DNA of 32,000 nucleotides, from positions 810,001 to 842,000 of the forward strand of contig OZ252279.1 of the NCBI GenBank assembly GCA_965250005.1, written 5' to 3'. The notes below the pieces were generated by a model. It was not told where the DNA came from. It made no database searches and was given only the letters and a program-made list of their open reading frames with translations. Within the stretch, counting starts at the first letter, position 1. Each line of letters starts with the position of its first letter. A program made the translations under genes and the position numbers. Positions 1 through 12,386 of the stretch are shown piece by piece. The DNA comes from Demequinaceae bacterium. GTDB lineage: Bacteria > Actinomycetota > Actinomycetes > Actinomycetales > Demequinaceae.

Positions 1-3000
1 GCCGCAGGCCGCGCGATTGCTACGGTGCTCCCTGACGGCGGCCGTACTGAGACCGCGCGCGACGCCCTGGGACGCGAGATCGCCACCACCGACGCCCTGG
101 GCAACACCACCAGCGTGACGTACGACGCTCTCGGCCGCGCGACCATCGTGGTTGACGCCGCCGGTTTCTCCACGACCGCAACCTACGACGCGGGCGGCAA
201 CCGCCTGTCAACGACGGACGCCCGCGGCGGGATCACCGCGTTCGTGTACGACGTGATGAACAGGCTCGTGTCAACCACCAACGCCGAAGGCGAAACCCGC
301 ACACAGTCCTACGACGCAGCGGGCAACGTCACGGATGGGGTCGACGCGCTGGGCGTGGCGACGCACTTCACATATGACGTGCGGAACCTGCTGACCGAGA
401 CAATCGAGAACTACTTGCCGGCCGAGCCGTCGAGCGAGTCGGTCAACGTGACGACGTCGGTGAGCTACGACGCCCGCGGCGACGCGGTGGCGACCGTAGA
501 CCCGCGCGGCAACGCCACGACGTATGTGCGCGACGCGCTTGGCCGCGTGGCGGCAGAAACGGACGCACTCGGCCAGACCAGCGTCGTCGGCTTCGACGCG
601 CTTGGCCGCCCGTCCGTGGTGACCGCACCTGATGGCTCGGTGACGGCGACCACCTACTCGCCCGACGGCTACCCCGTTGAGATCGCGTTCCCCGATCAGA
701 CCGTGACATCCGAATTCGACGCGCTGGGCAACCGAACGTCCATGACCGACGCGCTCGGAACGTCTTCCTGGACGTACGACTGGGCCTCACGGGTCACCGT
801 CGCCGTGGACGCGCTAGGCCAGAAGAACACGAACCAATACGACCTCGCAGGCAACCAAACCCGCGTGACATATGATGACGGCCGCTCGCTGCTGCGCACG
901 TTCGATGCACGCAACCTAGCCGTCACGCAGGCTGATGCTGACGACATCACATCCTTTGATTACGATCAGGCCGGTGCGCTGGTAGGTATTTCGCGCCCGT
1001 CGGGTGTGGAGACCGCCATCGACCGCGACCTACTAGGCCGGGTGACGGCGATTGTTCACACCGGTGAAGGCGTCGTGGGCAACACGCTTCCTAGTGGTGA
1101 GGTGAATCCGTCGTCGATGGCTCCGGGTAATGCGTATGGGCATTGCAAGGACAACGGGAATGGCCACCCGAACCAGCAGCCTGCGGGTTGTTCGACGCAA
1201 GCTCTGACGTTCGAGTACGAGTACGACGCGCGTGGTCTGGTGGATGAGCGGGAGCTGTCCACGGATGAGGCGACCACGCTCACGGATTACACGCATGATG
1301 CGCTTGGGCGTCTGACGGAGTCTGTCACCGGTGACTATGTGGCCACGTATGGGTGGGATGCGGCGTCGAACTTGGTGTTTGAGTCGGTGTCTGAGGATCT
1401 GTCGACGAACAAGAAGGGTGATGGGTACACGGTCACCTGGACCGTCAACGCGATCAACCAGCTCACGCAGTCGGTGATGGATCCGTCGGCGATGCCGGCG
1501 AACAAGACGGAAACGACGGCGTTCTCTTATGACGCGCGCGGCAACCGCACGCAGGCGTTGACGACCACGACGTCGGGCAACAAGACGCACACGGTCAGCG
1601 ACATCCAGTACTCGTATGACGGTCGCGATTTGGTCAGTTCTGTGACCGGTGGTGACACGGATGTGGCGTATGCGCGTGACGGCGTGGGCCGTGCTCTTGA
1701 GGTGTCCGAGGATGGTGACACCCGCACCCGCCTGTATGACGGGCTAGCGATCGTGCGTGATGGTGACACTCAGCTGACGCGCGGTCCGGGTGGTGCGGTG
1801 TTGTTTGAGGCCACGATGGTGACGTCGGGCAAGGGCAAGAAGGCGACGACCTCGATCCAGACGGTGGATGTGCTGGCGGACCTGCTGGGTTCGGCTGTCA
1901 CGACCGCCACGGATGGCGTGATTTCTGCGGACCTGGCGCTGTTTGGAGACTTTGGTGACCTACTGACAGACACCTCCCTGGACACCGTCACTGGGTTTAC
2001 CGGTCAAGTCGATACGGCAGGGTTGCTCGAGTTTGCGTCTCGGTCCTATGACATTGGTTCTCGGGTGTGGGTCCAGGATGACCGCTACCGGGGCACGGTC
2101 ACCCGTGCGTCGTCCCTGAACCGGTACGCCTACGTGGAGGGTGCCCCGGAAACATATGTGGATGTCCTTGGCTTCTTTAGGGCTGCGGCTGCGTTGCGAG
2201 CACAACAGCTGGCGGTATTGAACGCACAACTCCAGTCTGCCCTGGGTTCTCTAGACAGCCTGTATGGATTCGCGATCCAAAACGGGCAGGGCATGTCAGC
2301 CGATGACATGATGCGCGCCTACAACAATCTGGCTGCGGGTCTGGATCCAGCGGTCAAGGGCGTGCTGGACCCGATCGTCGGCAAGCTCGCGACGGGCGTC
2401 AAGACATTTCATTTGCGACAAGCGATTGCGACGATGAAGCAGAAGTTGGCTGAAAATGCCTATGAGAAGGAAAAGGCGCGGGCCGTGGCGGAGTTCCGGG
2501 CCCAAATGGATCTCCAAATCGAAGCACTGTATGCGCAGGCGCCCGGCGGTAACCCCAACACGGTGCACGAAGATAGGGGCTTCGTGGGCAATCGGTTGGA
2601 AGCCCTCAAAGGTCATGTGGGTGCCGCAAAAGACATGGTCGTGGACCTGGCGGTGACTGCGATCGACTTCAACATCATCATGCTGAACCCGGAACTGGCC
2701 GTCCTTACGGGCAGCCTGGACCGCTCGAACCAGCAAATCGACGCGTTCCAGGCTGGGATCGAAGAGAACGGTTGGGGCGACACGCTCAACATGACCCTCA
2801 ACCCGGTCTATCACTTGATCAACGGGAGCGTTTCGACCCTCGATTCGTTCAACACTGGCGACTTCCACGGTGTGGGCGAGGGTGTGTTCCAGATGCAAAT
2901 GGCTTTCGCGGAAACCGCGCTCGTCGTGGTGCCAGGCGCAGGATTGATCGTCGCTGGAGGTGTCAAGGTCGCTGCGCTTGCGGGCCGCGCCACCAACTCG

Positions 3001-3495
3001 CTGACAACCCTCACCACCCGAATCGCCGCTACCGCCCGCGCCTCAGGCCTCGCAGCAGACGCCGGCGCCATCCAACTCCCCGGACGCGCCGCATCAGCCG
3101 CTGATGCTGCGCTAACTGAAGCCGTCACGGCCAAGGCAGTCGCGGGTGCCGAAGTCGCGGTCGTCGACACGGCCGCAGCAAGTCGGCCCGCCGCGCTCGT
3201 AACTGAGACCTACGCTCCAAAGCCACTCAAGCCGAGCGAGGCCGTCGCGCGTTGGGACGAGTTCTTGGGGGACGGCCCAACGACGAACATTCATCCGAGG
3301 ACTGGTGTTCCAGATCCGAACCGTATTGTGTCTGCGGACGGGCTAAGAAGCATCCGTTTTGGTGAGCATGAAATGGGTAGCTCTCCCACGAAGTTTCATT
3401 TCCACGAGGAAACGTGGAGATTCGATGCGGCTACCAACACGTGGCAAGTCGATAATGTAGTGGTTCGAGTTCCCTTCCCGAGAGGCTCCTGGTAA
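1..3495 (+). CDS. RHS/YD-repeat polymorphic toxin, 3' portion (5' end lies off-window), with a long variable C-terminal toxin region
   Basis: Frame 1 is open from nt 1, so the M at nt 25 is internal. Dozens of YD-type repeats are present (YDALGR, YDAGGN, YDAAGN, YDARGD, YDLAGN, YDQAGA, YDARGL, YDARGN). The core-end-like motif NRYAYVEGAPETYVDVLGFF is encoded at 2119-2178. A 439-aa non-repeat tail follows. Stop is TAA 3493-3495. Confidence 0.9.
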   Translation, partial: AAGRAIATVLPDGGRTETARDALGREIATTDALGNTTSVTYDALGRATIVVDAAGFSTTATYDAGGNRLSTTDARGGITAFVYDVMNRLVSTTNAEGETRTQSYDAAGNVTDGVDALGVATHFTYDVRNLLTETIENYLPAEPSSESVNVTTSVSYDARGDAVATVDPRGNATTYVRDALGRVAAETDALGQTSVVGFDALGRPSVVTAPDGSVTATTYSPDGYPVEIAFPDQTVTSEFDALGNRTSMTDALGTSSWTYDWASRVTVAVDALGQKNTNQYDLAGNQTRVTYDDGRSLLRTFDARNLAVTQADADDITSFDYDQAGALVGISRPSGVETAIDRDLLGRVTAIVHTGEGVVGNTLPSGEVNPSSMAPGNAYGHCKDNGNGHPNQQPAGCSTQALTFEYEYDARGLVDERELSTDEATTLTDYTHDALGRLTESVTGDYVATYGWDAASNLVFESVSEDLSTNKKGDGYTVTWTVNAINQLTQSVMDPSAMPANKTETTAFSYDARGNRTQALTTTTSGNKTHTVSDIQYSYDGRDLVSSVTGGDTDVAYARDGVGRALEVSEDGDTRTRLYDGLAIVRDGDTQLTRGPGGAVLFEATMVTSGKGKKATTSIQTVDVLADLLGSAVTTATDGVISADLALFGDFGDLLTDTSLDTVTGFTGQVDTAGLLEFASRSYDIGSRVWVQDDRYRGTVTRASSLNRYAYVEGAPETYVDVLGFFRAAAALRAQQLAVLNAQLQSALGSLDSLYGFAIQNGQGMSADDMMRAYNNLAAGLDPAVKGVLDPIVGKLATGVKTFHLRQAIATMKQKLAENAYEKEKARAVAEFRAQMDLQIEALYAQAPGGNPNTVHEDRGFVGNRLEALKGHVGAAKDMVVDLAVTAIDFNIIMLNPELAVLTGSLDRSNQQIDAFQAGIEENGWGDTLNMTLNPVYHLINGSVSTLDSFNTGDFHGVGEGVFQMQMAFAETALVVVPGAGLIVAGGVKVAALAGRATNSLTTLTTRIAATARASGLAADAGAIQLPGRAASAADAALTEAVTAKAVAGAEVAVVDTAAASRPAALVTETYAPKPLKPSEAVARWDEFLGDGPTTNIHPRTGVPDPNRIVSADGLRSIRFGEHEMGSSPTKFHFHEETWRFDAATNTWQVDNVVVRVPFPRGSW

Positions 3496-3875
3496 TGAAG
3501 GTTGAATTGCAGCGCGAAGCCCCCAGTGACGGCTCGAGGATCCGGATTGCTAACGACGCTGTTGCCGGTGGCGCGCGCTGGAAAGGCGCCGGAACAGCTG
3601 ACACAATCGTTGACATAGAACTCGAAATACCGGGCGTGATCCAGTGGGCTGCAATTGTCGTGGACGCCGGGCCTTCGCACCTCGAAAACCCGAGCGAAGG
3701 GGAATTGCGAATCGTTGGTGTTGCGAGTGATTTGGGCCCAGATGGCTTGCTGATTATGACGGTTCCAGGCGGCGTAATCCTTGTTGAGACATCGGGAGCG
3801 GCACCCAGTGGAATCATTGGAAGAATCATTGGGATAACCGCGCATGACGCGCGCGTGTACTCGACTGGTGTGTGA
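3495..3875 (+). CDS. Candidate cognate immunity protein for the RHS C-terminal toxin (126 aa, no family recognised)
   Basis: ATG 3495-3497 shares its A with the RHS stop TAA (TAATG), which is a translational-coupling geometry. It is on the same strand, immediately 3' of the toxin tip. The sequence has strand-like alternating hydrophobic patterns (TIVDIELEIPGVIQWAAIVVDAG, GLLIMTVPGGVILVETSG). Two long antisense ORFs overlap it, so the strand choice rests on context rather than proof. Confidence 0.6.
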   Translation: MKVELQREAPSDGSRIRIANDAVAGGARWKGAGTADTIVDIELEIPGVIQWAAIVVDAGPSHLENPSEGELRIVGVASDLGPDGLLIMTVPGGVILVETSGAAPSGIIGRIIGITAHDARVYSTGV

Positions 3876-4045
3876 CTCTCCAGATTGGCGACGCGGCCTT
3901 GGGCAATGCACTCCCAGCGATCGAACGCAGCGGTCCTCGATGGCGCCGGGAGGCAACGCCTCGTCCTCGAGGAGTCTTTTGCGCGGCTGTGGGCAATGTG
4001 GCGCTGCCGTTGCTATGGCTGACAGAAGCGGAGGTTTGAGCCAGG

Positions 4046-4390
4046 TTGCCCGAGATTATGAAGTTCATTTCAGCGTTCATGGGTTATCTCTGGCGTGACG
4101 CGGACTTCCAACTCGGCGAATCGGCGGTTTCGACCGTCAACGGTGGCAACGCACATTTGGTAGTCGAGTCGCCCGATCTTCGAATGCGTTTTGTGCTCGA
4201 TCGGTCTCAAATGCTGCTCGAGTTCCAGCCGCGCCTGGATCGTTCGTCGGAAACTTGGTTCGATGTCGATCTGGTTCATCGTGTGATCGATGGGCCTCGC
4301 GACGGTCCCAACCTGTTGGACGAGTACTACGCCAGCTTTGTCGGAAGCAATCTTGACGCGATCAGGGCGCTCTTCGCGCGGGACGCTTAG
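4046..4390 (+). CDS. Hypothetical small protein (114 aa), possibly an orphan or second immunity protein
   Basis: The ORF has protein-like composition (MKFISAFMGYLWRDADFQLGES...LLDEYYASFVGSNLDAIRALFARDA). GGAGG at 4030-4034 lies 11 nt before TTG 4046. An alternative ATG is at 4058. The ORF lies in the lower-GC patch downstream of the toxin/immunity pair. Confidence 0.5.
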   Translation: MPEIMKFISAFMGYLWRDADFQLGESAVSTVNGGNAHLVVESPDLRMRFVLDRSQMLLEFQPRLDRSSETWFDVDLVHRVIDGPRDGPNLLDEYYASFVGSNLDAIRALFARDA

Positions 4391-6819
4391 TCAACCTCGC
4401 GAGTCGCTCTGCGCGCGGCAGGCAGCGCACGCGCCAAGGAACTCTTCGGGTCGGAGTAACGCTGCGATATGGCATGCAGCCTTGCGAGCGAATTTCGACA
4501 AAATGGGGCGTCTCCCGTCAGGGGCCGGTGTAGGCCCGATAGGTTGACCATCGTGGATGACGCACCAATGACGCGGCATCAGGTCCCTCGCGGAAGCAGG
4601 GCTGATGGCGAGTCAAATCGCGAGTTGTTGTTGGTGAAGAACGTCTCTCGAATGCGGTTGACCTATCAGGTGCGCCCACTAACGTTTCGCGCAACGCAGG
4701 AGCAGAAGCGGCTGAAGCCGGACCTTGCGCTGGCAACCGCAGTTGGAGACTTCGAAGACCACTGGTTCCTCGAAATCGATCTAGCAACGGAGTCGATTCC
4801 CGCCGTCATCCGCAAGTGCGCCGTCTACCAGTCATACAAGGCTTCCGGCCTCGAGCAGGCCCTGCTCGGGCTGTTTCCGGCCGTTGTGTGGCTCGTCGCG
4901 GACCAACACCGCCGTGAGCGCCTGAAGGCCGCCATCGGGGCGGACAAGCGCCTAGACGGGCGCGTATTTCGGGTCGTCGAACCAACTACGATGCTGCGCC
5001 TCGCAGGCCTGCCCGATGACACGAATCACGGCAATAGGGGTGGCGAAATTAGGTGACGACAAACGTCTGGACTCGTCGGGCCAAGAGAGTTATCTTCAAG
5101 AGGCTCCATGTCCCAATTGCGACGATTTGGCGAGCCCATCGGTCGCCCTGGGGTGGAAGGAGGAAGTCATGGAAACACCCATAGAGCAACAGGCACGGCC
5201 TCTCGCCGTGACCTACCTGCGTGTCTCGACACGCGAGCAAGCCGAACGCGATGGCGATCCGGAGGGCTATTCGATTCCCGCCCAACGAGAAGCGAACCAG
5301 CGCAAGGCCGAAGCGATGGGCGTCGACATTGTCGGTGAGTTTGTGGATCGCGGAGAATCGGCACGCTCCGCCGACCGACCCGAACTCAAGCGAATGCTTC
5401 ACTTCGTAGGCGAAAACCCCGTCGACTACTGCATCGTCCACAAGGTCGATCGGCTCGCTCGTAACCGGGCCGATGACGTTGAAATCAATATGGCGCTGCG
5501 CGCCGCAGGCGTGCAACTAGTCTCTGCCACCGAAAACATCGACGAAACACCATCAGGCACGCTGCTGCACGGCATCATGAGTTCCATCGCTGAGTTCTAC
5601 TCCCGCAACCTCGCCGCCGAAGTCTCTAAGGGCATGTCCCAGAAGGCCAAAGCAGGCGGCACGGTCACCCGTGCGCCACTGGGCTACCGCAACGTCCACT
5701 CGACTGACGACCAAGGCCGCGAAACCAGACCCGTCGAAATCGACCAGGAACGTGCACCGCTCGTGGCGTGGGCATTCGAACGCTACGCCGAAGGCGACAT
5801 CACACTCAACGAACTCACCGACCAGATGAACGCTCGCGGTCTCACCACCGCGCCCACGGCCACCCGTGCCTCTAAGCCGATCCTGGTCACCCAGTTGCAG
5901 AAGATCCTCAAGAACCCCTACTACAAGGGCGTCGTCGTCTACCGTGGTGCGACCTACCCGGGCAGGCACGAACCACTGGTCAGCGCGGCCCTGTGGGAGA
6001 TAGTTCAAAGCGCACTCGCCACACGGCAGAACGGTGAAAAGGTCCGACGCCACCACCACTACCTCAAGAGTTCCATCTTCTGCGGCTCCTGTAAGAGCAG
6101 GCTCATCGTCCAGCACTCCACCAACCGGCACGGCAACACCTACGAATACTTCGTCTGCCTCGGACGCCACCAGAAACGCACCAACTGCCAGATGTCCGCA
6201 GTATCGATCAACCAAGTCGAAATGCACGTCGTTGACTACTACAAGTCACTCGCCCTGCCACCGGAACTGCGCGAGACGCTCCAAACCGCGCTAACCGAGG
6301 AACTCGAACAATTCACCTCTGAATCAAAGGTGGAGAAGCGAGAACTGGAGCGTCAGCAACGCACTCTGGAAGACAAGCGCAAGAAACTGTTAGAAGCGCA
6401 CTACGCGTCCGCGATCCCGCTCGACCTATTCAAATCCGAGCAAGCGAGCATCGCCCGCACCATGGCCACCATAGGCGAGCGGCTCGAGTCGTTCGACGCC
6501 ACCGCGACAGAGCTCGCAGACTACCTGGATGCCGCTCTCTCGCTTGCACAGGACTGCTACGAGGCCTACCGCCGCGGCACCCCCGGACAGCGACGGATGA
6601 TCAACCAGGCGATGTTCGAGCGGCTCTACATCCACGACTCCGCTGACGCTGACGGCGTACTCGCCGAGCCATTCAACGCACTACTCGACGCCGAAACGCT
6701 CGCTATCGCGAGCACCCACGACTCCGCGAAGCCCGCATTAGAGAATCGAAAAACCCGGCTGTCCCGTGACGGAGAGAACCGGGTTCATCGACTTGGTCAG
6801 GGTTCTAAAGAACCCGTCA
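4391..6819. mobile_element. Recombination/replication module of an integrated element or its remnant, abutting the 3' end of tRNA-Ala. The left boundary is undetermined and the element may include the RHS cassette.
   Basis: A serine recombinase and a replication-relaxation remnant sit directly against the tRNA 3' end, flanked by a polymorphic-toxin locus on the other side. No flanking direct repeat could be identified inside the window. Confidence 0.4.
4568..5056 (+). CDS. Replication-relaxation family protein, apparently N-terminally truncated (possible pseudogene)
   Basis: The C-terminal half matches the family layout I recall: KPDLALA...HWFLEIDLATESIPAVIRKCAVYQSY...FPAVVWLVADQHRRERL. The N-terminal winged-helix part expected in full-length members is absent. 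Sequence upstream of ATG 4568 in the same ORF (from 4469) is not protein-like. The start is uncertain. Confidence 0.5.
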   Translation: MTRHQVPRGSRADGESNRELLLVKNVSRMRLTYQVRPLTFRATQEQKRLKPDLALATAVGDFEDHWFLEIDLATESIPAVIRKCAVYQSYKASGLEQALLGLFPAVVWLVADQHRRERLKAAIGADKRLDGRVFRVVEPTTMLRLAGLPDDTNHGNRGGEIR

Positions 6820-6992
6820 TGGTGGAGCTGAGGGGACTCGAACCCCTGACCCCCTGCATGCCATGCAGGTGCGCTACCAACTGCGCCACAGCCCCGCGAC
6901 CTTGCGGTCACTTGCCCCGGAGGGCGAGTGCCATAGTACCGAACCGCAGCGGGAACCGCCTAATCACTTCCCGCGTTGTGCCGCTCAAGTGA
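5169..6992 (+). CDS. Large serine recombinase (resolvase/invertase N-terminal domain, recombinase domain, zinc ribbon, coiled coil)
   Basis: AAGGAGG (5157-5163) ends 5 nt before ATG 5169. Catalytic region: AVTYLRVSTREQ...VHKVDRLARN...IAEFYSRNL. Zinc ribbon: IFCGSCKSRL...YEYFVCLGRHQKRTNC. A coiled-coil segment follows (EKRELERQQRTLEDKRKKLLEAHY). There is no stop until TGA 6990-6992, so the last ~58 codons are antisense to tRNA-Ala and to the end of the neighbouring gene. The functional C-terminus is uncertain. Confidence 0.85.
   Translation: METPIEQQARPLAVTYLRVSTREQAERDGDPEGYSIPAQREANQRKAEAMGVDIVGEFVDRGESARSADRPELKRMLHFVGENPVDYCIVHKVDRLARNRADDVEINMALRAAGVQLVSATENIDETPSGTLLHGIMSSIAEFYSRNLAAEVSKGMSQKAKAGGTVTRAPLGYRNVHSTDDQGRETRPVEIDQERAPLVAWAFERYAEGDITLNELTDQMNARGLTTAPTATRASKPILVTQLQKILKNPYYKGVVVYRGATYPGRHEPLVSAALWEIVQSALATRQNGEKVRRHHHYLKSSIFCGSCKSRLIVQHSTNRHGNTYEYFVCLGRHQKRTNCQMSAVSINQVEMHVVDYYKSLALPPELRETLQTALTEELEQFTSESKVEKRELERQQRTLEDKRKKLLEAHYASAIPLDLFKSEQASIARTMATIGERLESFDATATELADYLDAALSLAQDCYEAYRRGTPGQRRMINQAMFERLYIHDSADADGVLAEPFNALLDAETLAIASTHDSAKPALENRKTRLSRDGENRVHRLGQGSKEPVMVELRGLEPLTPCMPCRCATNCATAPRPCGHLPRRASAIVPNRSGNRLITSRVVPLK
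6820..6895 (-). tRNA. tRNA-Ala (anticodon GGC), CCA encoded
   Basis: Hand-folded 76-nt cloverleaf from the reverse complement. Acceptor GGGGCUG/CAGCUCC with the G3:U70 alanine identity pair. D arm GCGC-AGUUGGUA-GCGC. Anticodon arm CCUGC-AUGGCAU-GCAGG. Variable loop GGGUC. T arm AGGGG-UUCGAGU-CCCCU. Ends in ACCA. Confidence 0.95.
6933..6938 (-). promoter_or_regulatory. Possible -10 element (TACTAT on the minus strand) for tRNA-Ala
   Basis: A TAnnnT-type hexamer lies 37 nt upstream of the mature tRNA 5' end. No convincing -35 element was found. Confidence 0.2.
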
Positions 6993-7565
6993 CCACCGTC
7001 CCCCGAGCCGCTGAACGAGCTCGCTCCAACGGGTATTGTCGAGGTTCGCGATTGCGCGCCGCTCCGGAGCAATACCAAGCAGCGCGTGGATTCCCACCCG
7101 GATTGCACTCCCGTGACTCACGACAACGAGGCCGCCGGGGGCCGACGCGGCGTGCTCCTCTATCGCCGCCGCGACGCGCCGCGCGAGCGGGCCGTTCCCC
7201 TCAATACCTTCCACCTGGGCCTCGCCGTGCAGGCTCCACCGTTCGACGGCCTCAGGGTATCTCTCCTTACGCTCGCTCAGCGTGAGGCCCTCCCACGGCC
7301 CGTACTCACGCTCGGCCAATCGTGGGTCGAGCGTCACATCGGCGGCGCCCAGGGCGTCGGCGATGGTCCGTGCGGTGTCGGCAGCTCTCGCCAAGGGCGA
7401 CGCGAATACAACCGACTGGACAGGCACGATGGCCTTGAGTTCGGCCGCGACGCGCTCCGCCTGGTCTCGGCCAGCGGCATTGAGCGGGATGTCCGTGGCA
7501 CCCTGGAGTCGGCCACTGGCGTTCCAGTCAGTCTGACCGTGACGGACCAGGTACAGGTACGTCAC
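6960..7565 (-). CDS. Histidine phosphatase family protein (phosphoglycerate-mutase-like)
   Basis: N-terminal LVRHGQTDWN (RHG catalytic motif) and a later VSHG motif. GTG start 7565-7563 overlaps the rsfS stop (GTGA). This is the usual actinobacterial position downstream of nadD-rsfS. Confidence 0.85.
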   Translation of the reverse strand: MTYLYLVRHGQTDWNASGRLQGATDIPLNAAGRDQAERVAAELKAIVPVQSVVFASPLARAADTARTIADALGAADVTLDPRLAEREYGPWEGLTLSERKERYPEAVERWSLHGEAQVEGIEGNGPLARRVAAAIEEHAASAPGGLVVVSHGSAIRVGIHALLGIAPERRAIANLDNTRWSELVQRLGGRWSLERHNAGSD

Positions 7566-11261: not shown

Positions 11262-12386
11262 TCAGTGTTTGGCGACAACGACAAGGTCATCAATGTGGAC
11301 CAACTCGCGGGCGAACTTCTCGCCCAGCTGCTCGCGCAATTCCTTGGTGCTGAGGCCAAGCATCACCGGGATCTGGTGCGCTGCAAACTTCGCTAGCCCG
11401 CGGGCGAGCAATGTGCCATCGGGCCCAACGAGGTCGACAGGGGCCTCGGCTTCAAACTCGCCGCGCACCGCAGTCACTCCTGCCGACAACAGCGAAGCCT
11501 TCCCGCCCACGACAGCACGGGCGGCACCATCGTCTAGAACGAGCTGCCCGGTGGTCTTGGCTGCGTGCGCGAGCCATTGGAGGCGCGCAGTCGCACGCTT
11601 GCCTGTCGCAGCAAACAAGGTCCCGGCCTCGGCACCCACCACGGCCTGTGCCGCCTTCGCCGCACTCGTGAGCACCACCGTCACGCCAGAGGCGGTCGCG
11701 ATGGCGGCGGCCTCGAGCTTGGTGACCATGCCCCCCGTCCCAAGAGCGTGACCGCGATGAGAGATGTCGATGTCTTCGAGGTCGGCCGCCGTCTGAACGT
11801 GTTTGATTAGCCTCGCGCTCGCGTCGCTCGGTGACGCAGAGTACAGGCCGTCAACATCGGTTAGCAGTATCAGCGCGTCCGCTGCGACCACCGTGGCAAC
11901 CAGGGCGGCGAGCCGATCGTTGTCGCCAAACCTGATCTCGTCGGTGGCGACCGTGTCGTTTTCGTTGACGATTGGCACCACGCCGAGCTCGAGCAGGCGG
12001 TTGAGCGCGCGCTCGGCGTTGCCGTAGTGGCTGCGGCGCATCAAGTCGTCTGCAGACAGCAGCACTTGGCCGGCGCGAATCCCATGCTTGTCAAAGGCGC
12101 GTGCGTACGCGGCGATGAGCATTCCCTGCCCGACCGAGGCCGTAGCCTGCGCCGAGGCGAGATCCTGCGGGCGCTGATCCAGTCCCAACGGCTTGAGTCC
12201 CGCGGCTATTGCGCCGGACGTTACCAGGATCACCTCTTGACCCCGGCCGCGCATGTGGGCGACGACATCAACCAGTGCGGCCAGGTTTTCTTCTGCGAGC
12301 GAGCCGTCGGCGGCGGTGAGGGAAGAGGATCCGACCTTGACGACAACACGACGCGCCTCGGCAACGGCCGTGCGCGTGTCGCTCAT
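11262..12386 (-). CDS. proB: Glutamate 5-kinase (with C-terminal PUA-like region)
   Basis: [10 protein letters not shown]...VTSGAIAAG...[22 protein letters not shown]. The ATG overlaps the obg stop (ATGA). Confidence 0.92.

Follow-up and report, generated by a model that had tools for sequence, protein, structure and literature searches.

A large serine recombinase frame that runs antisense through its target tRNA gene, with a probable attachment site inside the recombinase gene

Results

In a 32,000-nucleotide stretch of contig OZ252279.1 from a Demequinaceae bacterium (assembly GCA_965250005.1; hereafter the window), the open reading frame (ORF) of a large serine recombinase (LSR) continues in antisense through an intact tRNA-Ala gene and ends inside the neighbouring host gene. 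Building on the established geometry, reading frames, host-element boundary and family-wide conservation, we consider it likely, from sequence comparison, that the segment 4655-6825 represents the surviving right end of an integrative conjugative or mobilisable element. The attachment site of this recombinase family (attP) would lie within the LSR ORF, in a disordered linker past the structured core, so that the C-terminal tail is host-encoded after integration, and in attP the LSR frame would run on into an HTH module.

The recombinase frame and its tail

The recombinase and the host genes that it crosses are arranged as follows.

5169..6992, + strand: LSR ORF in the integrated state, 607 aa plus stop; database protein P0001 is 100% identical (607 aa)
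5169..6719, + strand: structured LSR core, residues 1-517, comprising the catalytic domain, the recombinase domain and a zinc ribbon with a long coiled-coil insertion (Pfam, AlphaFold)
6720..6795, + strand: variable linker, predicted to be disordered (pLDDT below 50 from residue 519) and stop-free across the family (stop counts in 69 loci)
6822..6992, + strand: host-encoded C-terminal tail V552-K607 plus stop, read from antisense tRNA, the spacer and the final 33 nt of the convergent gene (homologue tails, junction comparison), predicted to be disordered (AlphaFold)
6820..6895, - strand: tRNA-Ala(GGC), intact, the integration target and the sole tRNA in the window (ARAGORN)
6960..7565, - strand: convergent host histidine phosphatase gene (Pfam His_Phos_1, E 9e-53)

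A longer frame (5016..6992, + strand) appears in the ORF listing, and the alignment of homologues together with P0001 places the true start at the ATG at 5169. From there no stop codon precedes the tRNA, whose 3' CCA end at 6820 points toward the recombinase according to ARAGORN. Across the tRNA the frame reads atg gtg gag ctg agg gga ctc gaa ccc (M V E L R G L E P), and it closes with a TGA at 6990-6992 after covering the last 33 nt of the histidine phosphatase gene (6960-6992). A preliminary description of this DNA had reported both the stop-free antisense read-through and the overlap, and the ORF, ARAGORN and His_Phos_1 predictions bear it out on both points. It had also attributed about the last 58 codons to antisense tRNA, spacer and neighbouring gene; the composition stands, but the host-encoded part amounts to 56 codons (V552-K607), the two codons before it belonging to the element arm.

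The catalytic serine domain, the recombinase and zinc ribbon domains and the short att sites place the ORF among the LSRs. Pfam assigns Resolvase (PF00239, E 9.8e-33) to residues 13-164 and also matches Recombinase (PF07508) and Zn_ribbon_recom (PF13408). The serine nucleophile S20, within the motif YLRVST, is invariant in 40 homologues and is present in the window LSR, which keeps all residues that are invariant in the family alignment. In the AlphaFold model, pLDDT is high to about residue 517, with the long helices of the coiled-coil insertion (365-443) following the zinc ribbon strands, and falls below 50 for residues 519-607. Sequence similarity to LSRs of solved structure is confined to the catalytic domain, and phage and plasmid collections hold no relative of this family at or above 32% identity.

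Conservation of the read-through

Antisense-tRNA tails were found in at least 106 of the 120 best homologues. Among 80 related genome loci, 74 have a minus-strand tRNA over the 3' end of the ORF, nearly always in one register, and the overlapped tRNAs cover six specificities (Ala, Arg, Val, Lys, Leu and Asp). The tails track tRNA identity, in agreement with the earlier suggestion that part of the recombinase tail is host-encoded and depends on the junction. Around the junction, G545, V552, G556, E558 and P559 are near-invariant, and the tRNA-coded tails themselves are unconserved and range from 10 to 515 codons. Between the last conserved domain and the att core, 69 loci contain no in-frame stop in 1910 codons, compared with 33 and 49 stops in the other two frames; a stop-free linker up to the core thus goes beyond chance.

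A local accident or annotation artefact, in which a normal stop was lost by mutation, might have been suspected in the window, where the element is a remnant and the unstructured tail extends into a neighbouring gene, a common trait of spurious extensions. The recurrence of the same register at those 74 loci, which span many families, and in the homologues, together with the lack of any in-frame stop before the core, has already refuted this reading, whose remaining probability is close to nil. Read-through of the LSR into the tRNA is confirmed as a family trait.

The host-element boundary

The boundary was located by comparing near-identical elements at different sites. Three loci (L022, from CP189572.1, L058 and L066), in three genera, carry elements that are 100% identical over at least 10 kb and are inserted at tRNA-Ala, tRNA-Val and tRNA-Lys; their identity ends after TGGTGG, and x7 is where they first mismatch. 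Another twelve pairs, each at least 90% identical and inserted at different tRNA species, have all diverged by x13, in six cases already at x7. Since identical elements at three tRNAs diverge directly after TGGTGG, the crossover falls in the terminal six nucleotides of the tRNA gene, and the sequence from Val552 onward is host-encoded. The preliminary description had anticipated the tRNA 3' end as integration target and had considered a crossover there.

Classical tRNA islands have a tyrosine recombinase next to the tRNA and a long direct repeat of the tRNA 3' end at the far end, and an element of that kind, with a long tRNA 3' copy, a crossover in the tRNA body and a mostly element-encoded tail, would also have the tRNA 3' end facing it, as here; some IMG/VR loci moreover show an LSR followed by tRNA 3' fragments. 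Several observations make such an origin highly improbable: no tyrosine recombinase is present and the gene beside the tRNA encodes a serine recombinase; identical elements part at x7, six bases into the tRNA; the direct repeat flanking the island of locus L244 measures only 11 bp (TGGTGGAGATA); and the IMG/VR fragments are best read as a second element in the same tRNA. The preliminary description had proposed looking for a second copy of the 25-nt tRNA 3' segment, and none was found in the window (up to 3 mismatches allowed), nor any tRNA-derived repeat within 10 kb upstream at 75 loci; a general repeat search returned chance-level matches only. The missing 25-nt repeat does not refute tRNA-targeted integration by the LSR, because a long repeat is what a tyrosine integrase would lead one to expect, whereas the core shared between att sites here is about 6-15 nt.

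Architecture of the attachment site

At the right end (attR), the following features were delimited.

6796..6819, no strand: element-side half-site (P arm) inside the LSR ORF, with a GGTTYGA-type motif in the same register in 75/75 aligned junctions
6820..6825, no strand: att core TGGTGG, with the crossover within it (x7 is the first differing position between elements of full or at least 90% identity inserted at different tRNAs)
6826..6846, no strand: host-side half-site (B' arm), formed by the tRNA acceptor 3' strand and T arm; the mirror counterpart of the P-arm motif, TCGAACC, is at 6838-6844
6775..6815, no strand: two symmetric sequences that enclose the P-arm motif, the inverted repeat AGAACC (6775-6780) / GGTTCT (6801-6806) and the palindrome GGGTTC-TAAA-GAACCC (6800-6815)

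The core is the complement of tRNA positions 76-71 (CCA, discriminator A73, C72 and C71); its family form is TGGTG(G/C), and it is common to attL and attR in L054 and L244, the two loci for which both junctions were found. In the window the P-arm motif is GGTTCTA (6801-6807), which codes for G-S-K and is separated from the core by 12 nt. The layout GGTTYGA-N12-TGGTG-N13-TCGAACC holds at attR in 75 loci. In the P' arms identified in L054, L081, L082, L206, L208, L210 and L244, TCGAACC is spaced by N18 rather than N13, which puts the T-arm-like motif 5 bp farther out than in the tRNA arm of attR. Other LSRs are said to show the same offset, the distal motif reportedly lying 5 bp farther out in attP-type than in attB-type half-sites. 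An imperfect dyad, a small common core and attP half-sites longer than those of attB, as in LSR sites generally, are thus all present.

The crossover dinucleotide is bounded to x1-x6; its exact position within this interval, like the assignment of LSR protein domains to particular att motifs, is a matter of inference. A symmetry centre between C74 and A73, derived from attR alone, was set aside as premature given the N18 spacing of the P' arms, and a centre at about x6 is more likely. A hairpin equivalent to the inverted repeat around the P arm occurs in 65 of the 75 loci. For some lineages, in which a GC stem is followed by a T run (e.g., L009), it is plausible that the hairpin ahead of the P arm serves the tRNA as a terminator supplied by the element; this role may not be general, the window having no terminator-like site at this hairpin and type-A elements having no T run.

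From this layout we propose that the P arm, with its T-arm-like motif 12 nt from TGGTG(G/C), would be matched across the core by the tRNA's own T arm, whose TCGAACC lies 13 nt from it. Strand exchange in the core would leave the tRNA intact and join the LSR ORF to antisense tRNA, and translation would then continue to the first chance stop, which in the window comes 56 codons on, inside the neighbouring gene. The resulting host-encoded tail is probably functionless. In the attP state, whether a circle or a tandem junction, the same frame would pass through a P' arm that mimics the acceptor strand, with TCGAACC 5 bp farther out, and would enter a double-HTH or winged-helix module of about 150 aa supplied by the left end of the element.

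The window copy is a remnant

Only part of an element remains in the window: a truncated Replic_Relax gene, the intact LSR gene and attR.

4655..5056, + strand: truncated Replic_Relax gene, matching residues about 145-280 of a protein of about 285 aa (partial Pfam match; tblastn of 21 family members)

Homology to Replic_Relax starts only at 4655, marking the broken left edge, and positions 1-5000 of the window contain neither an HTH ORF nor a P' arm. In relatives, the LSR is preceded on the same strand by genes for a TraG/VirD4-type T4 coupling protein, Replic_Relax, SSB, ArdA and methyltransferases; of such genes of integrative conjugative or mobilisable elements, the window keeps only the truncated Replic_Relax. 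The preliminary description had predicted a different recombinase C-terminus in the excised form. At left ends and attP-like junctions of relatives the frame does continue into another C-terminus, but the window copy, truncated at about 4655 and without a left end in the window, may no longer have an excised form.

That the LSR ORF is intact although the rest of the element is gone, and that what seems to be the same 2.0-Mb contig has a 90% identical paralogue (P0002) at a second tRNA-Ala, could point to domestication, with the enzyme kept for action on the tRNA locus or for antisense transcription across tRNA-Ala. We regard this as improbable: there is no conserved host-specific context, relatives sit in conjugative modules, identical copies move between genera, and intactness may reflect only recent decay, as in L054, where the recombinase has a single nonsense codon.

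Left ends and the HTH module

Left ends (attL) were recognised in L054, L208, L210 and L244. In each, the host flank gives way to a TGGTG core with TCGAACC 18 nt beyond it (a degenerate motif in the case of L054 and L210), and an HTH ORF shares its frame with the GTG of the core. L054 is the only LSR-bearing locus with both junctions; L244 is an island that has both att arms and no LSR but keeps the HTH ORF with an ATG-GTG start; and in L206 and L210 islands stand in tandem at one site. On 13 metagenome contigs, attP-like junctions have the LSR directly upstream and in frame, and in nine of these the LSR frame runs on into an HTH or winged-helix-like tail. Pfam assigned HTH tails to HTH_23/38/58/7, whereas two winged-helix-like tails that were tested gave no match at or above the Pfam cut-off. 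The continuation of one frame at left ends and attP-like junctions bears out the implication of the preliminary description that attP lies inside the recombinase coding sequence.

Regular expressions for N13 and N18 arms and blastn-short with the junction as query gave no enrichment of attL within 10 kb upstream of 75 loci. Candidate hits in L011, L031, L049, L058 and L059 fell inside coding genes; a candidate at L075:430-950 turned out to belong to a different LSR, being the 3' end of its unsplit gene, which codes for a winged-helix tail; and IMG/VR relatives considered as clean circles instead show LSRs followed by partial tRNAs or degenerate arms.

The meaning of the shared frame can be read in two ways. 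The HTH protein may be encoded by an independent gene whose NTG-GTG start, built from the complement of the tRNA's ACCA end, lies in the att core, next to an LSR that is merely stopless; the junction-dependent C-terminus would then be real in sequence and biologically neutral. Among database proteins the module has 124 relatives, every one of them a separate protein of about 150 aa whose start lies at the core; none is fused to an LSR. The module can work on its own, as the L244 island without LSR indicates by keeping the HTH ORF with its own start. The tRNA-coded tails are of widely varying length and predicted to be disordered, which also favours neutrality. Independence leaves two regularities unexplained, however: the LSR frame stays open over 1910 codons of poorly conserved linker, and in all lineages examined both the LSR frame and the HTH frame match the core GTG even though the linker has many indels. 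We hold this independent-gene reading to be a realistic possibility, though we lean away from it. The in-frame fusion could be incidental, and the fused ORFs on the metagenome contigs may represent tandem junctions rather than circles.

The second way is a state-dependent split gene, which we put forward only tentatively, as something we rather doubt. The circle or tandem junction would fuse the LSR to the HTH module, integration would free the module with a start codon made from the ACCA end of the tRNA, and the differing isoforms would act as a directionality switch, the fused isoform serving, for example, in integration and the truncated LSR with the free HTH protein in excision. The left-end HTH protein is no more than a candidate recombination directionality factor. 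If the split-gene reading were true, these serine integrases would have a built-in directionality switch that reads the state of the DNA and would need no classical recombination directionality factor. Serine integrases are prized in genome engineering, where the choice of direction is a central question.

Relation to known systems

In domain composition (Resolvase, Recombinase, Zn_ribbon_recom and coiled-coil insertion) and in having short quasi-palindromic att sites with a small shared core, the family resembles the LSRs of phages and integrative conjugative elements such as phiC31, Bxb1, TP901-1, A118/LI and TnpX. The preliminary description had called a tRNA target unusual for a serine integrase. 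One of two reports on integrative elements does describe serine-recombinase integration into tRNA genes as rare, but together they also provide a precedent in actinobacteria: eight closely related Mycobacterium AICEs whose serine recombinase inserts at one tRNA-Leu, in addition to phage phiRSM with a serine recombinase and tRNA-Ser (Ghinet et al. 2011, PMC3218068; Bordeleau et al. 2012, PMC3429521). Like the window family, those AICEs are actinobacterial integrative elements that use a serine recombinase to enter a tRNA gene; unlike what we find here, neither account, as far as available, describes how the att sites are built, a read-through of the ORF or an HTH module at the left end.

The closest analogue is the archaeal SSV-type integrase. 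In these 'suicidal' integrases of the SSV family of archaeal viruses and plasmids, attP lies in the integrase ORF, a tRNA gene is the target and integration partitions the gene (PMC7253208, PMC8371274), which parallels the P arm and core within the LSR ORF and the left-end ORF in frame with the core. The SSV-type enzymes, however, are archaeal tyrosine recombinases with long attP/attB identity, and their splitting destroys the enzyme (PMC7253208, PMC8371274), whereas in the window family the exchange affects just a C-terminal addition and leaves the catalytic and DNA-binding core (structured residues 1-517) whole. The family appears to be the first bacterial serine-recombinase counterpart found of the archaeal attP-containing integrase gene, and one in which only a C-terminal DNA-binding module is exchanged.

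Two other systems share single features with the family. In mycobacteriophage integration-dependent immunity, attP reportedly lies inside the repressor gene, and integration by a tyrosine integrase is said to remove a degradation tag; a protein C-terminus depends on the integration state there as well, but the gene concerned is the repressor rather than the recombinase, and no sign of a degradation tag was seen among the heterogeneous tails of the window family. CIMEs are cis-mobilisable, att-flanked elements without a recombinase, and integrative conjugative elements accrete in tandem in Streptococcus. L244, with att arms and no recombinase, and the tandem islands of L206 and L210 are comparable, although recombinase family and hosts differ.

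The family would provide a natural collection of integrases whose recognition sequence, the T arm and CCA end of tRNAs, is nearly universal. A single lineage inserts into several tRNA species and is not confined to one genus, as the 100% identical element in three genera illustrates. Because the att architecture can be read from genomes, prediction of att sites could extend to 585 or more relatives in genomes and to homologous proteins numbering in the thousands. Very many Actinomycetota entries annotated as 'recombinase family protein' would carry 10-500 spurious host-encoded C-terminal residues, and the HTH proteins of about 150 aa mark the opposite ends of the same islands. Islands of this LSR family often carry defence systems.

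Recombinase frame and tRNA-Ala in the window

The ORF 5016..6992 encodes a large serine recombinase (LSR) with Pfam matches to Resolvase (E 1e-32), Recombinase and Zn_ribbon_recom; homologue alignment puts its start at ATG 5169, as does P0001, a database protein of 607 aa that is identical to it. The features around its 3′ end are listed below in window coordinates; the P arm is the element-side half-site at the right end (attR).

Features at the recombinase 3′ end
6801-6807, P-arm motif GGTTCTA
6820-6895, minus strand, tRNA-Ala(GGC) by ARAGORN, the sole tRNA of the whole window, CCA end at 6820 towards the recombinase
6822-6824, GTG codon of V552, first host-encoded residue of the tail
6838-6844, TCGAACC, T-arm complement
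6960-7565, His_Phos_1 gene (Pfam), convergent to the LSR

Because the junction, ...ggt cag ggt tct aaa gaa ccc gtc atg gtg gag ctg agg gga ctc gaa ccc..., translates in the LSR frame as G Q G S K E P V M V E L R G L E P, the frame runs antisense into tRNA-Ala; having traversed the gene and the spacer, it reaches a stop codon at 6990-6992 and so overlaps the His_Phos_1 gene by 33 nt. Sequence, ARAGORN and Pfam agree here with the preliminary description, which had the ORF reading antisense through the tRNA into the next gene, and ARAGORN likewise places the tRNA 3′ end facing the element. In the AlphaFold model of the window LSR, the structured part ends at about residue 517, and pLDDT is <50 in the linker, in the P-arm-coded peptide and in the tail; sequence matches to solved LSR structures are confined to the catalytic domain.

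Read-through across the family

Among the best 120 protein homologues, which come from many actinobacterial genera and show 49-90% identity, at least 106 have tails formed by antisense-translated tRNA 3′ halves, for example ..LVELRGLEPLTP.., ..LVPLEGLEPPTVSLGRNCSSIELQRL and ..LVPPAGFEPATHGLGNRCSIP. With one genome taken per species, at least 585 loci encode relatives, and among the best 80 of these, which were inspected, a minus-strand tRNA overlaps the ORF 3′ end in 74; the tRNAs are Ala (GGC, CGC, TGC), Arg (CCT, CCG, ACG, TCT), Val, Lys, Leu and Asp. Residues G545, V552, G556, E558 and P559 are near-invariant in a 40-homologue alignment, and the stretch between them is hypervariable. The linker from the last conserved domain to the junction is itself poorly conserved across 69 loci and holds no in-frame stop in 1910 codons, against 33 and 49 in the other frames; two loci in this survey were pseudogenes. 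Judged from these sequences, tRNA read-through is a family trait and no accident, and the window locus is ordinary among its family. Tails of integrated ORFs span 10-515 codons (median 20).

Anatomy of the att junction

Aligned junctions show a single register on the element side, GGTTYGA, 12 nt and TGGTG, of which GGTTCTA is the window form of the first motif. TGGTG is the complement of the tRNA CCA, discriminator and position 72, and TCGAACC follows 13 nt beyond it, a layout that matches the imperfect dyad that serine-integrase sites should have. Constraint on DNA explains the conserved peptide G-x-G-[LS]-K...LV better than constraint on protein, because the codons vary non-conservatively (GLK, GSS, GSK, GWS) while GGTTNGA is kept. 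The core was numbered T1 G2 G3 T4 G5 G6, with x1 at 6820. Three loci in other genomes are 100% identical throughout the sequence compared to the left of the core, at least 10 kb, and first mismatch at x7.

Identical elements at different tRNAs
L022, Propionibacteriaceae bacterium, tRNA-Ala-TGC, att core ~11589-11593
L058, Leucobacter, tRNA-Val-TAC, att core ~11589-11593
L066, Pseudarthrobacter, tRNA-Lys-TTT, att core ~11589-11593

Twelve more pairs (≥90% identity, different tRNA species) diverge by x13, six of the 12 at x7. Since near-identical elements at different tRNAs part at x7-x13, the crossover lies within x1-x6 (tRNA positions 76-71); the tRNA body is therefore host DNA, and the window tail is host-encoded from V552, as had been suspected. 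We infer a crossover at the central dinucleotide x5-6, a prediction matched by the split between GG in lineages at Ala, Val and Lys and GC at Arg, Leu and one Lys. The three identical loci, copies of one ICE in three genera, indicate one integrase with several tRNA targets and very recent inter-family transfer.

No long tRNA repeat was found in the window or within 10 kb upstream at 75 loci, an absence that fits a serine rather than a tyrosine mechanism; the proposed search for a second copy of the tRNA 3′ end thus came back empty, and it was the wrong test for a serine enzyme. Integration at the tRNA 3′ end leaves the tRNA intact and swaps everything beyond the core, and the integrated ORF terminates at the first chance stop. 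The recombinase probably recognises a T-arm-like motif, presumably through its zinc ribbon domain, together with acceptor-like inner bases.

In 65 of 75 loci (in the window at 6775-6815), P-arm GGTTY is the 3′ half of a hairpin or inverted repeat with RAACC, 20-30 nt upstream, as the 5′ half, and the inner stems are lineage-specific yet complementary (median z -2.4 vs shuffles). This hairpin could substitute for the tRNA terminator displaced to attL, a displacement seen in the Leucobacter locus L054, or could be an accessory binding site; no terminator-like site was detected at the window hairpin. At L016:9740-9830, 220 bp before the start of the recombinase, a fossil tRNA-Lys 3′ half follows a P-arm-like hairpin; it is probably left over from a previous junction and carried along inside the element.

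Left ends and the HTH module

L081-L083, three homologues that lack tRNA tails, have 9-15 nt in common with a tRNA 3′ end; in L081 and L082, TCGAACC lies 5 bp further out than it does in a tRNA, and the motif is degenerate in L083. A metagenome scan with GGTTYGA-N12-KGGTG-N18-TCGAACC gave at least 120 matches, in many of which the LSR frame goes on as LV-x-[LV]-x-x-x-x-S-N for 60-150 codons into DNA-binding domains. One kind of tail carries two small HTH domains (Pfam HTH_23, HTH_38, HTH_58, HTH_7); the other is winged-helix-like by sequence appearance only, both of the two tested having no Pfam match at or above cut-off. Among the matches listed, 13 contigs have an LSR, detected with the family HMM, immediately upstream and in the same frame; HTH or winged-helix-like tails are present in nine of the 13. 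Left ends were located with the tails as protein queries, no DNA pattern being involved; P′ denotes their element-side half-site (attL).

Left ends and islands
L208 (Mycobacterium sp. OTB74), host metabolic genes, non-P left arm, TGGTGGAGGTAATGCAGCGTTACTCGAACC, in-frame HTH ORF, defence cargo
L054 (Leucobacter), attL with native tRNA terminator hairpin, TGGTGG core, P′ arm, in-frame 143-aa double-HTH ORF
L244, 9990-12170, complete island without LSR: attL, HTH ORF, one cargo gene, P arm, tRNA-Ala(GGC)
L206, 9880-10462, tandem islands, HTH ORF first
L210, 1640-2221 and 9880-10489, tandem islands, HTH ORF first

In L054, whose recombinase has one nonsense codon, attR and tRNA-Ala(GGC) lie 4.2 kb beyond the left end, and excision would join ..KGSNKSLMV to ALFSCYAKQLERL..HTH. 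An 11-bp repeat, TGGTGGAGATA, flanks the L244 island, which looks like a cis-mobilisable element and could be mobilised in trans. Left neighbours in the L206 and L210 tandems terminate in a degenerate P arm. Defence systems abound in the cargo of L206, L208 and L247 (Dnd, CBASS-like SMODS, type I R-M, GmrSD, Qat).

All P′ arms from the protein-query routes have N18 spacing, compared with N13 in the tRNA and N12 in the P arm. If P and P′ are assumed equidistant from the centre, the centre falls near x6 and attP-type arms exceed the tRNA arm by ~5 bp, reportedly the known serine-integrase pattern (Rutherford et al. 2013).

The attP site (P plus P′) deduced from these sequences lies inside the LSR ORF, which contains the P arm and core. 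This agrees with the earlier suggestion of attP within a coding sequence, as does the junction-dependent C-terminus, given that integration swaps the sequence beyond the core and left ends carry an in-frame HTH ORF; that interpretation was largely right. The LSR-HTH fusion of the attP state is a candidate functional isoform: the LSR frame stays open up to the core, and the LSR and HTH frames both match the core GTG in all lineages, many indels notwithstanding. However, all 124 of 124 database relatives of the HTH module are stand-alone proteins of ~150 aa, and the module persists in the LSR-less L244, with an ATG-GTG start that incorporates the complement of ACCA. Well-formed P+P′ junctions with HTH tails also occur in L093 (core 8318, pattern orientation), L120 and L173, where the several kb preceding the P arm contain no serine recombinase; decay of neighbours in tandem arrays may be the cause.

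Relation to known systems

The tRNA target had been called unusual. It has precedent in eight Mycobacterium AICEs with a serine recombinase at tRNA-Leu, and such integration is termed rare there (PMC3218068, PMC3429521). The available parts of the literature searched gave no account of the att architecture or of ORF read-through, and the family-level architecture appears undescribed. The nearest conceptual relatives are the archaeal ‘suicidal’ tyrosine integrases of the SSV family, in which the ORF harbours attP and is split upon tRNA integration (PMC7253208, PMC8371274); they differ from the LSR in enzyme class, domain of life and outcome, the last because the LSR keeps its catalytic core.

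Element content and other loci

Genes upstream lie on the recombinase strand in two architectures: type A, a T4SS-type ICE module with TraG/VirD4 coupling protein and SSB, and type B, a TrwB-like ATPase with Replic_Relax. ArdA, a methyltransferase and an HTH/Peptidase_M78 pair likewise occur upstream in two further loci of the family, L082 and L083. The phage and plasmid collections contained no close relative. Only the C-terminal half of Replic_Relax is left in the window (homology 4655-5044, residues ~145-280 of ~285), so the window copy is a remnant comprising truncated Replic_Relax, intact LSR and attR. The same 2.0-Mb contig apparently also carries a paralogue with 90% identity, P0002, which enters tRNA-Ala(CGC); P0001 and P0002 diverge inside the T-arm-coded residues.

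An RHS toxin locus adjoins the Replic_Relax fragment: window 25-4390 encodes an RHS/YD-repeat protein that extends past the window start, so that its C-terminal 1156 aa are present, followed by two small ORFs at 3495-3875 and 4046-4390 without Pfam match, probably the tip of a toxin plus immunity genes. This block is lower in GC (~0.57-0.63), adjoins the truncated gene and may have replaced the left part of the element.

In three IMG/VR ‘viral’ contigs (L211:1600-1740, L213:3130-3270, L216:11620-11700), the recombinase is followed by 30-55 nt of tRNA 3′ sequence and then unrelated DNA, which suggests a second, tyrosine-type element in the same tRNA. Gut and viral contigs (L084:473-521, L085:995-1043, L086, L124, L192) carry a similar attP-like site, GCGGGTTCGAGGAAAATCGGAATGGTGCACC...TCGAACC, and the att architecture may reach beyond Actinomycetota; in L084 a distant LSR (27% identity) lies ~350 bp upstream of the site, and the frames disagree. 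A second serine recombinase, this one unsplit, has its 3′ end at L075:430-950, 9 kb upstream of the tRNA-linked recombinase, its ORF containing a degenerate att-like GGTTTGC...TCAGTGGACC...TCCAACC and then a winged-helix tail.
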